Part shown: piece by piece, positions 33,001 through 36,000 of the stretch
Layout: each line of letters begins with the position of its first letter
How positions within the stretch are numbered: the first letter of the stretch is position 1
From: Escherichia coli
Lineage (GTDB): Bacteria > Pseudomonadota > Gammaproteobacteria > Enterobacterales > Enterobacteriaceae
DNA: 64,000 nucleotides
Reading direction: 5' to 3' (one strand)
Assembly: GCF_024223415.1 (NCBI RefSeq)
Contig: NZ_CP100500.1
Made by a program: the position numbers

Positions 33001-36000
33001 GCAGTTCGAAGTGGATAAGCAGGTCATCGTCTCCGAAACGAGATGCCCGGCAGCAGGTGAGCAATGCACCTACCTGACACTGGCAGACGGCACGCAAATA
33101 ACCGCCGTCACCGACACCATTCGCGAGCTTGTGATTATCAGAGGGGTTAAACGATGACCAGCAAATACACCACCAACGCACGCAAGCCAGGCAAGGAGGC
33201 ACGTCATCACATTGCCGTTCTGCGCAATCTCATCATGTGCGAAATCGACGACTTTGTGGCGGGACTGGGCCAGCCGGGCGAGCCAGCAACACCGGGCGAA
33301 ATACACAAAGAACTACGCCGCCGCATAGAAAGCGCGGTGGATTACGTCATGAACCCGAACGACTGACCAGAACGCGAGCGCGCGCCGGATGACGCACGCA
33401 TAACGCTTAGCGGGAAGCGCCAACCGTAAGGCTGGCAATGATTTTTTCGGAGAGTGAGAGAGATTCGCGATGATTAAGACCAAGAGCAGCACAAGCTTTA
33501 TTGCGCGCCGGGTTGTCCATGCATTCAAGCACCGGAGAGTCCTGCTTCTCAATTTCCACCAGTCGCGCCAGCAACACCTCCGTGCTGAGACCGTCGCTTT
33601 CAGTAATCAGGACGTTATAGCGATGAGCCTGTTCTTTTGCAGCCTGAGCGCGTCGCCCAAATTTGCAGGCGATATTGCAGCCACTAAGCACAGCCACGAT
33701 ACCACCCAGCAACCAACTGAAATTGCTGCCTGCAAACACAGTAGCCCCAGACGTAAGGATGACAGCATTAATCACCGTATCCATACGGCGGTTAAACACC
33801 TCCGAAATATGTTCAATCCAGTAACTGTTCCAGAGACGAAACATGACCTCGTGTCGCCGTTCGGCATGATTTTCAGTTGGTTGTCTGTTCATTGCGGTTT
33901 AACCCTCCTCATCATCTCGCCCCTGCCCTTTTTCAGGCGCGGGAGCCGGTTGCCGTGGCACATGAAATTTATCGCTATCAGACATTTATTTTTTCCCGTG
34001 TGTTGTTGAACAAAGTGCCCGCACAGTTTTGACGGAACGGCGGGCGCTTCAAGCGTAACACACCCTTCTTTTCCGGTTGAAGGCGAAAAAAACCGGACAG
34101 CTACCCGACACAAACCAGACCAGCGGAGAACTGCCATGTACGCACTTAAACCTATGGGGATACCAGGCAAAGCCCCGGCGCATGTGAAAGCCTGGACACA
34201 GCAGGAAGATGATTTGCTGATCACCCTGTACCCGCAGCACACAGCACGAGATATCGCCGGACGTCTGGGGCGCAGCTACGAAGGAGTTTGCGGCCGCATT
34301 TCTCGTCTGCGTGAACAGGGCAGGATTGGCATCAAGCAGCAAAGACTAAGCGATGAGATGATCGCCACGCTCATCAGGAACCGCCACACCAGGTCCCTCA
34401 AGGAACTGGCACACATGGCGAAAGTTTCGACACGCACGGTAACCAACCGATTGAGGGCGCTGGGCTACAGCCTGATCAAATGCGGGGATCTGCATAAAAA
34501 CACCGTCTACAGCGACCGCATCGTTGAGATTATCAGACAGTTACACGACGAGGAGGGCCTGACGTTCAGGGAAATCGCACAGCGCCTTAGCCACGAACTA
34601 CAGCCGAACCCTACCCCGACACTGGCTCAACGTCTCTACTGGCGGCGCACAGCATCCGACGCCGTATTCCGTGAACTGTTACCAGATTGAGCAATCACCA
34701 TGTACACACAAAAAAACCGCTTGCAACAACAAACCGGAACAGGGTACGCTTCCCATGCACCTCATAAAACGGGTGTCGGGATTCTCAACCTGCTGACAAA
34801 CGAAGCGCACAACCGCGCCAGCGGTTTTTTTGTGCGTACTGTATTGCCACGTCTTTTTCGCATCAGAATTATGGTGGGGCGTACGGGGCCGACTTCGGTC
34901 GGGCCGGTTTCTTCGTTTGCCGGTGTTGAGAACCCCGTACGTCTCGCCACCCCGAGATTCTCAACTCTGGTTGGTGAGTATCCAAAAACTCACAAACGAA
35001 GAGGCCAAACACCATGGCAAACCGCAAACAGCGCCGCGCTATCGCTGCGCAGCGTCACATCCAGACCGAAATCAACCGCAGACTCTTCCGCGCCCACAAC
35101 ATCGCGCGAATCATGCACGCCAACATGCTGCATGAACGCAGTAACGCGTTATCAAACCTCTATTCCGCTTCCGTTTTCAGCTATCTGGCGGACGACCTGC
35201 GCGAGCTGCAAGACCTCATTAACCAGCACTGATAAACAACCCGAAGCCATCCTGCGCCCGTTCGCGGGAGGCTTCCGCACATCTGTAGTCGGGAGGATTG
35301 CGCCATGATTCTGGCTGACGATTTTCTGGAGTACCTGAACAACACCGAGCGCGACCTGTACGCGCGCGTTCTCACCCGTTACGAGAAATACAAACTTTCG
35401 CTGCCAGAACATCAACTCCGCGAAGGCGATATCGACATTGAAGGGCGCTACATCGTCAGGCACCTCATAGCGGGCTACGGCATCTGGCGTGTCACCGGAC
35501 GTGAGCATTCATTGCTGACCATCTGCCAGAGTCCGTCCGGCGTGATAACGGAGATCGTCGCTGATAGTCTGCGACTCACCCATCACAGCGCCACCCCGGA
35601 AGAAACGCTGGCAGAAACCCAGCGTCTGTGTCGCGTCATTGCCAACGCCGCCCTCCGCGCAGACAGGAGGTAAGCGATGGAGTTCGTCAGAGACTGGCAA
35701 AAACCGCGCCCCGCTATCGGGCGCGAAGGCTTACCCGTACCTGAAACCGCACTGGATACCATCCTGAAGTGTTACCGCGCGGACGAAGAGCGCGCCCTGA
35801 ACGCTGAAGAGCAGGGTCATCCGCTTGCGGGCACAACCATCGGTAACGCGATCGACAAGTGGGAAGGCGCACAGGAGCGCCAGGAAGAGGCCATCACGCT
35901 CACACAGGAAGCGAAGAGACGCCCACCCACCCTCATTGAGGAAACCCTCAAAGAGCTGGACACCCTGCCAAAGTGGTTGAGGCTGCCACTGATTAAGCAC

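Follow-up and report, generated by a model that had tools for sequence, protein, structure and literature searches.

A conserved peptide and two-transmembrane protein cassette set against the early operon of a P2-like prophage in Escherichia coli

The window analyzed here, a 64,000-nucleotide stretch of Escherichia coli chromosome (contig NZ_CP100500.1, assembly GCF_024223415.1), contains a P2-like (Peduoviridae) prophage adjoining glsA-ybaT. An earlier note on this DNA, made from the sequence alone, pointed to a minus-strand open reading frame (ORF) within the prophage early region that would encode a 161-amino acid protein with two adjacent transmembrane helices (2TM protein). We find that this ORF is a real gene under purifying selection and that it has a companion: it comes second in a cassette whose first gene, overlooked in the earlier note, encodes a conserved 28-amino acid peptide, and the region as a whole is a self-contained two-gene ‘moron’ inserted backwards in a P2-like early operon. 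The anatomy of this cassette, as described below, is held with high confidence. Its function is less settled: at a little under even odds (about 0.45), we infer that it provides a membrane effector, expressed in the lysogen together with a peptide partner, that serves abortive infection or exclusion. The two genes are as follows.

33407..33892, minus strand: 2TM gene, 161 amino acids, recognized by its ORF, codon-position pattern, phrog_6315 match, annotated coding sequence and AlphaFold2 model
33899..33985, minus strand: small ORF, 28 amino acids, MSDSDKFHVPRQPAPAPEKGQGRDDEEG, unannotated and conserved in relatives

The length of an ORF is by itself no proof of a gene in this window, because the window is full of shadow ORFs. 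We aligned the codons of seven homologs with 50–77% protein identity and tallied their pairwise differences by codon position. In the minus-strand frame these differences are 0.30, 0.20 and 0.58 at positions 1, 2 and 3, which is a normal coding signature for that strand and an impossible one for the plus strand. Read in the frame of the overlapping plus-strand ORF 33470..34009, the same differences become 0.58, 0.20 and 0.30 and are not concentrated at third positions. The earlier note had left its claim to depend on this ORF not having the better coding statistics; the comparison leaves the claim standing, although the plus frame is itself unexpectedly preserved. Full-length homologs of the 2TM protein, with 43–98% identity, were found in E. 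coli, Citrobacter, Salmonella, Pantoea, Kosakonia, Serratia and a Yersinia phage. The protein matches phrog_6315 over its full length (E 2e-49), and the Prokaryotic Genome Annotation Pipeline (PGAP) of RefSeq lists 33407..33892 on the minus strand as WP_029490500.1, a hypothetical protein. With the homologs, the codon pattern and these two matches, the minus-strand ORF of the earlier note is borne out. A profile search of 1.84 billion representative proteins returned 214 clusters at E<=0.001, 105 of them at E<=1e-10 (50%-identity representatives), and its full-length matches are single-domain proteins of ~150–180 amino acids. The family is borne almost solely by temperate phages. On plasmids the cassette is seldom found (7 of 72,556 records), and a scan of species-representative genomes gave only two loci. 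Region 33100-34700 of the window is 99.9% identical to E. coli strain GF60 and is held by only 10 of 5,426 complete E. coli genomes. The deposited annotation of Yersinia phage vB_YenM_42.18 omits both cassette genes and has a 221-amino acid ORF (UNA05722.1; L001 4812-5477) on the strand opposite its 2TM gene, a call which, on codon-position evidence, is probably a mis-annotation.

Only 6 nucleotides separate the stop of the small ORF from the 2TM ATG. The final codons of the small ORF (GAT GAG GAG GGT) double as Shine-Dalgarno sequence for the 2TM gene, an arrangement that points to translational coupling of the two genes. PGAP does not annotate it. Each of the nine loci examined first contains the small ORF, whose differences by codon position there are 0.21/0.14/0.48 and whose sequences have undergone synonymous switches between serine codons (AGC and TCG) and between arginine codons (CGG and AGA). 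Together these observations indicate selection at the peptide level; the small ORF is real and under purifying selection. In a scan of IMG/VR viral contigs with alignment A1, 16 of 20 loci carry the small ORF. The remaining four are L017, where our script picked the wrong frame, and L023-25, where the ORF is broken (the 2TM ORF of these contigs, protein cluster P0009, has 160 amino acids and is divergent in its transmembrane segments). The small ORF is also found in distant lambdoid, Mu-like and P2-like relatives whose 2TM proteins share only ~20–25% identity, and there the proline runs are stronger, from PPPP to PPPPPP. Across loci the peptide has 22–50 amino acids and is hydrophilic and proline-rich. 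A paired alignment of 18 cassettes shows an invariant His8 and a nearly invariant Pro-x-Pro (Pro13 and Pro15). The small peptides had no match when searched against PHROGs. When the peptide was joined by a linker to the 2TM protein and modeled with AlphaFold, peptide residues 7–18 fell outside the class with predicted local distance difference test (pLDDT) values below 50 while the linker fell inside it; being per-residue confidence only, this is a weak hint of contact between peptide and 2TM protein.

The earlier note had also assigned the 2TM gene its own divergent upstream region (33893-34135). That region is real, but it is not empty: besides the small ORF, it contains a promoter-like motif and a covarying hairpin. 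The non-coding elements of the cassette are listed below.

34052..34060, minus strand: extended -10 promoter-like motif TGTTACGCT, pattern TGnTAnnnT, conserved across loci
34072..34097, no strand: inverted repeat TCCGGTT-N12-AACCGGA over the cassette -35 region, read from the upstream-region alignment
34012..34050, no strand: conserved, covarying stem-loop between the -10 motif and the small ORF
33371..33407, minus strand: GC-rich hairpin just past the 2TM stop, in the 40-nucleotide gap between convergent genes, from RNAfold of the downstream 90 nucleotides

All nine loci have one TGnTAnnnT, 70–77 nucleotides upstream of the start codon of the small ORF. Its TG, T1, A2 and T6 are conserved and its remaining bases differ among loci; most IMG/VR loci agree. 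This motif would put the start of the cassette transcript near 34045. A generic sigma-70 scan found no promoter for the cassette because it needs a -35 hexamer. The inverted repeat is a possible operator; other loci have a different palindrome, GCCGGG...CCCGGC, in the same place. A terminator-like prediction at 34109-34092 was dropped, its pairing being weak and non-conserved as against the conserved inverted repeat and extended -10 motif. For the stem-loop at 34012..34050, RNAalifold gives 10 pairs, seven of them with compensatory double changes, and the folds of individual sequences range from -9 to -16.5 kcal/mol. Seven C-A or A-C cells of the alignment become G-U on the plus-strand RNA and four G-U cells become A-C mismatches there; the structure may be either a 5′-terminal hairpin of the cassette mRNA or an element of the complementary early transcript. 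Hairpins similar to the GC-rich one at 33371..33407 are located 3′ of the gene at most homologous loci. It was rejected as a canonical intrinsic terminator since it has no U-run.

At every locus with readable context, the cassette runs against the early lytic genes and in the direction of C/int. These loci include P2-like phages of E. coli, Citrobacter, Salmonella, Pantoea and Yersinia, three lambdoid prophages and one Mu-like element, so that a gene set against the flow of its operon, as the earlier note had it, turns out to be a strict trait of the family. The position of the cassette in the early operon varies between phages, and in five loci (L007, L019, L020, L029 and L030) it is directly upstream of C-int. 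Variable position combined with fixed orientation is how a mobile unit behaves when it has its own promoter and selection acts on its direction. Strict antisense placement in three unrelated types of temperate phage suggests a simple transcription-interference switch that is on in the lysogen and off in lytic growth. In the Haemophilus lambdoid locus L014 (6938-8700), genes with GmrSD_N and HEPN domains lie directly downstream of the cassette and beside a cI-like repressor, which suggests an accessory or defense gene cluster in the early-left region. L041 (positions 1-4), from a P2-like prophage of a host with 40% GC, has an RVT_1 fragment at the locus edge past a Toprim replication gene; at ~5 kb from the cassette, it was not counted as a partner. 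A holin or pinholin would be expected in the lysis cassette beside an endolysin and to be expressed late. The 2TM gene is instead in the early region, with no lysis gene adjacent in the P2-like or lambdoid loci; the Mu-like locus L016 has an Amidase_2 gene ~1.7 kb off on the other strand.

The charged ends and two adjacent transmembrane helices described in the earlier note were recovered by hydropathy, charge and structure prediction. Two neighboring hydrophobic segments, at residues ~39–56 and ~59–77, sit in a stretch of 39 uncharged residues with Arg/Lys-rich sequence on either side. In the AlphaFold2 model (pLDDT 82.7), helices 7–53 and 59–101 form a long hairpin with an uncharged hydrophobic tip, followed by three short C-terminal helices. 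The predicted topology has both ends in the cytoplasm (N-in/C-in). The SLATT proteins, or SMODS and SLOG-associating 2TM effectors (Burroughs et al. 2015, as cited in preprint 10.64898/2026.04.29.721553), provide the closest likeness. Their architecture of ~150–170 amino acids, two transmembrane helices at the tip of a hairpin and flanking helices is also that of the 2TM protein. A Foldseek search of afdb50 gave 68 matches at E<=0.001, and most of the named ones are SLATT or DUF4231, where the names are database annotations and not experiments. SLATT- and DUF4231-named proteins dominate the top 50 (E 1e-15 to 1e-4, TM-score 0.66–0.86) and include matches with 17–27% identity and TM-scores of 0.66–0.83. 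The best matches in BFVD are SLATT-named but weak (E ~0.02). Sub-threshold matches to NCBIfam SLATT_4 are in register for seven of the 11 members scanned (12.7–21.9 bits, with the query itself at 12.7, against a cutoff of 55), and family member P0211 was labeled ‘SLATT family 5’ by its source. The likeness to small 2-TM effector domains noted earlier thus holds at the level of fold and stops short at the level of SLATT profiles, all of which score below threshold. We consider the 2TM protein to have a SLATT-like fold and to be a probable distant member of the SLATT superfamily on the strength of predicted structures; by its profile scores it belongs to no defined SLATT family. Several other searches were negative. 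Pfam scans of the query and 86 family members found no other significant family, a profile search of a 5.8-billion-protein set gave no match carrying a precomputed Pfam domain, a search from the distant member P0145 toward Pfam-annotated SLATT proteins returned only its own close relatives, and fold and profile searches of the PDB found nothing meaningful.

The ORF on the opposite strand of the cassette requires a separate account.

33470..34009, plus strand: ORF of 179 codons overlapping 91% of the cassette, in the antisense frame with second codon positions facing

This antisense frame is the one in which shadow ORFs are commonest, and the ORF product has no PHROG, NCBIfam or PADLOC match. 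Nevertheless, the frame appears to be neither a normal gene nor a chance shadow but one that is kept open. At nine P2-like loci it is open over 90–100% of the cassette, in stretches of 177–342 codons, and at the IMG/VR P2-like loci over 87–100%, except L035 at 64%. The start and end of the ORF shift between loci, a pattern that speaks against a conserved protein and in favor of the open frame itself being what is selected. Stops in the plus frame can come only from the sense codons TTA, CTA and TCA. In the nine P2-like homologs we counted seven of these codons compared with 44 expected from each locus's codon usage, a depletion of about six-fold, and none of the seven comes before codon 142, which places them all upstream of the plus ORF's start. 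Other rare or A-ending codons are freely used in the 2TM gene (ATA 19, AGA 14, CGA 23 and GCA 38). The null was drawn from 116 further long ORFs at these loci, for which the median observed/expected ratio is 0.93 and just 4% are at or below 0.25. The AT-rich Yersinia phage has none of the three codons where 8.8 are expected, and the Serratia copy none where 7.1 are expected. At the distant P2-like locus L038, an antisense ORF of 216 codons spans 90% of the cassette (synonymous-shuffle P ~0.006) in a different relative frame, which implies that no conserved plus-strand protein is encoded. A long antisense ORF is missing at the lambdoid loci L002, L014 and L037 (40%, 40% and 55% GC).

Rho polarity acts on P2 operons and accounts for the polarity suppressor Psu of the satellite P4. 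P2-like and Mu-like phages are not known to have lambda-N-type antitermination. It is conceivable, though we would not put it forward as the probable explanation, that selection holds the plus frame open so that the early mRNA is translated over the ~580-nucleotide cassette, without which Rho would stop transcription before gene A. If true, the cassette would be doubly constrained, by its own proteins on one strand and by ‘no stop codons’ on the other, and lambdoid carriers would be free of the second constraint.

Under the reading that we favor, of a lysogen-expressed effector with a peptide partner, the C repressor would hold the early promoter off in the lysogen, leaving the cassette promoter unopposed, and both products would be made. 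The 2TM protein would reside in the inner membrane with both ends cytoplasmic and be kept inactive. The peptide would be its regulatory partner, working in bound form as an inhibitor or sensor, or else as a nascent-chain leader through which coupled translation is gated. Upon infection by another phage, the 2TM protein would oligomerize and permeabilize or depolarize the membrane, so that the infection is aborted or the invader excluded. During the prophage's own lytic cycle, convergent transcription of the early operon over the cassette would silence it. SLATT proteins are membrane effectors in validated defense systems such as DRT10, for which permeabilization has been proposed (preprint 10.64898/2026.04.29.721553). 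A number of results count against this reading. Three contigs of an E. coli lineage (L023-25) have a small ORF with a frameshift and an in-frame stop beside an intact 2TM ORF, and the small ORF of the window has only a weak Shine-Dalgarno sequence (GGGA). None of the NCBIfam SLATT profiles scores above threshold (best 21.9 bits versus 55), Pfam gives no SLATT match for the query nor any at E<=0.001 for 86 members, and zero PADLOC-DB v2.0.0 families match the 2TM protein at E<=0.1; PADLOC-DB, the one defense catalogue searched, does not contain the cassette. Known SLATT effectors pair with a signal-generating partner (a SMODS cyclase, a TIR protein or a reverse transcriptase), and no SMODS cyclase, SLOG, TIR or reverse transcriptase gene is adjacent to the cassette at any locus with a gene table.

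The role of the peptide could be a different one. The small ORF may be a cis-acting leader whose proline-rich core pauses the ribosome, in an elongation factor P (EF-P)-dependent or arrest-peptide-like manner, and sets the output of the SLATT-like protein by coupled re-initiation; in that case the cassette would report on the condition of the translation machinery. Polyproline and APP/PPE motifs are known to stall ribosomes without EF-P, and proline runs recur among the peptides: PPPPPP in L040, PPPP in L002 and L037, PP in L014, APP/PPE in the Yersinia copy and EPP/PPE in the Serratia copy, besides the invariant or nearly invariant His and P-x-P. The 6-nucleotide spacing and the Shine-Dalgarno sequence inside the small ORF also speak for a leader. 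The copy in the window (PAPAPE), however, has no di-proline, and amino-acid conservation suits a mature peptide just as well. An mRNA structure that would mask the downstream Shine-Dalgarno sequence was not found, although no search aimed at one was made. We regard the leader as rather unlikely, and, concerning as it does only the role of the peptide, it is compatible with the membrane-effector explanation. A toxin–antitoxin addiction module, in which the 2TM protein is constitutively toxic and the peptide is a labile antitoxin serving prophage maintenance and not defense, would share the layout of a small upstream ORF translationally coupled to a membrane protein gene, the conservation of the peptide at the amino-acid level, and its core motif with weak AlphaFold confidence when fused to the 2TM protein. 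Yet the three contigs that lost the peptide ORF kept the 2TM ORF intact, which means that the peptide is no indispensable antitoxin unless that 2TM copy is inactive. Post-segregational killing would also bring little gain to an integrated prophage, and the cassette is rare on plasmids. We judge addiction to be improbable.

Two further explanations dispense with a defense role altogether. The 2TM protein might serve phage development or host physiology, for example lysis timing, control of induction or lysogenic conversion of the envelope. It is a small two-transmembrane protein of moderate hydrophobicity, rich in Gly, Ser and Ala as holins are, and temperate phages are almost its only carriers. 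Against this, the cassette is far from the lysis genes and always runs against the lytic operons, so it should be off in lytic growth, and its fold neighbors are named SLATT and not holin; a developmental role seems to us distinctly improbable. Finally, the plus ORF 33470..34009 could be the sole real gene with the minus ORF as its shadow, as implied by UNA05722.1. It runs with the operon and exceeds the minus ORF in length; every P2-like homolog has the frame open, and the depositors of one phage genome called it. The codon positions refute it as the sole gene, its first position being the most variable (0.58 versus 0.30 at the third). Its product is without database matches, its ends shift between loci and the open frame of L038 is a different one, whereas for the minus-strand product the fold prediction is confident and over 200 homologous clusters exist. 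This explanation is almost certainly wrong.

Comparison with known systems places the cassette near several of them without equating it to any. It resembles SLATT effectors, such as the SLATT-5 effector of DRT10/UG17, in its size of ~150–170 amino acids, its hairpin with a two-transmembrane tip, its cytoplasmic helices and its occurrence on mobile elements and prophages. It differs from them in having a proline-rich peptide of 22–50 amino acids as its only conserved partner and in being its own antisense transcription unit. Lambda RexB, P22 SieA/SieB and T4 Imm are, like the 2TM protein, small phage-encoded inner-membrane proteins, and they act against other phages; the orientation of the cassette suggests that it is expressed, as they are, from the repressed prophage. 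The 2TM protein has no detectable sequence relationship to these proteins, matching only PHROGs of unknown function, and is of another fold class, while the peptide partner and the strict antisense placement are cassette features undescribed for them. In membrane-toxin toxin–antitoxin modules, two small genes are also tightly linked, one of them encoding a membrane protein, and form a possible inhibitor–effector pair. In contrast to those modules, it is the larger product of the cassette that is the membrane protein, the small one being hydrophilic, and L023-25 has no intact small ORF. Transmembrane effectors are described as common among the systems in the defense hotspots of P2-like phages (Rousset et al. 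2022, PMC9122126). The cassette is likewise a variable P2-like accessory unit that may protect the lysogen. It sits reversed within the early operon upstream of gene A; other accessory genes of the window, including a RelE/ParE pair, are downstream of gpA. Literature searches found no published description of the peptide and 2TM cassette.

The genes surrounding the cassette are those of a P2-like early region.

30842-31141, minus strand: C repressor, with the integrase on the same strand
34136-34690, plus strand: helix-turn-helix protein of 184 amino acids, divergent to the cassette; phrog_323 ‘transcriptional regulator, D5-like’, E 2e-29
35677-38166, plus strand: gpA replication endonuclease, to which the small plus-strand early genes lead up

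The earlier note's description of the early region as a run of small plus-strand genes agrees with the early genes and gpA being on the plus strand. The divergent helix-turn-helix gene was considered as a cassette partner and rejected, as it is missing at most homologous loci. Further along, Rfam matches above the gathering score were found for isrK (34757-34831, 59.8 bits) and C4 antisense RNA (34867-34954, 79.2 bits), and just 3′ of them a 72-amino acid ORF (35014-35232) has relatives annotated as ‘derepression protein’. Region 34757-35232 looks like a P1/P7 immI-like antisense-RNA control module within the P2-like early operon. Long opposite-strand ORFs occur elsewhere in the prophage, including one of 256 amino acids on the minus strand (36535-37305) antisense within gpA. 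Past gpA, at ~38700-40220 (mapped from L003 11608-13115), there are two accessory two-gene modules: a DUF6516 (TumE-like) gene with a transcriptional regulator, and a RelE/ParE toxin gene adjoining a helix-turn-helix gene.

How SLATT-type effectors are switched on is still an open question (preprint 10.64898/2026.04.29.721553). So far they have been described only in multi-component defense systems, where they form the output arm. A stand-alone SLATT-like protein with a peptide would be the smallest such system and a tractable model of how an effector is kept closed and triggered, and the peptide gene of this cassette escapes standard annotation. The preserved frame on the opposite strand offers a candidate case of selection on both strands of one DNA segment. 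If it is maintained for the translation of the early mRNA, it would suggest a general rule for how reverse-oriented morons are tolerated within operons, and would provide a clean natural case of selection for translation itself and not for a protein.

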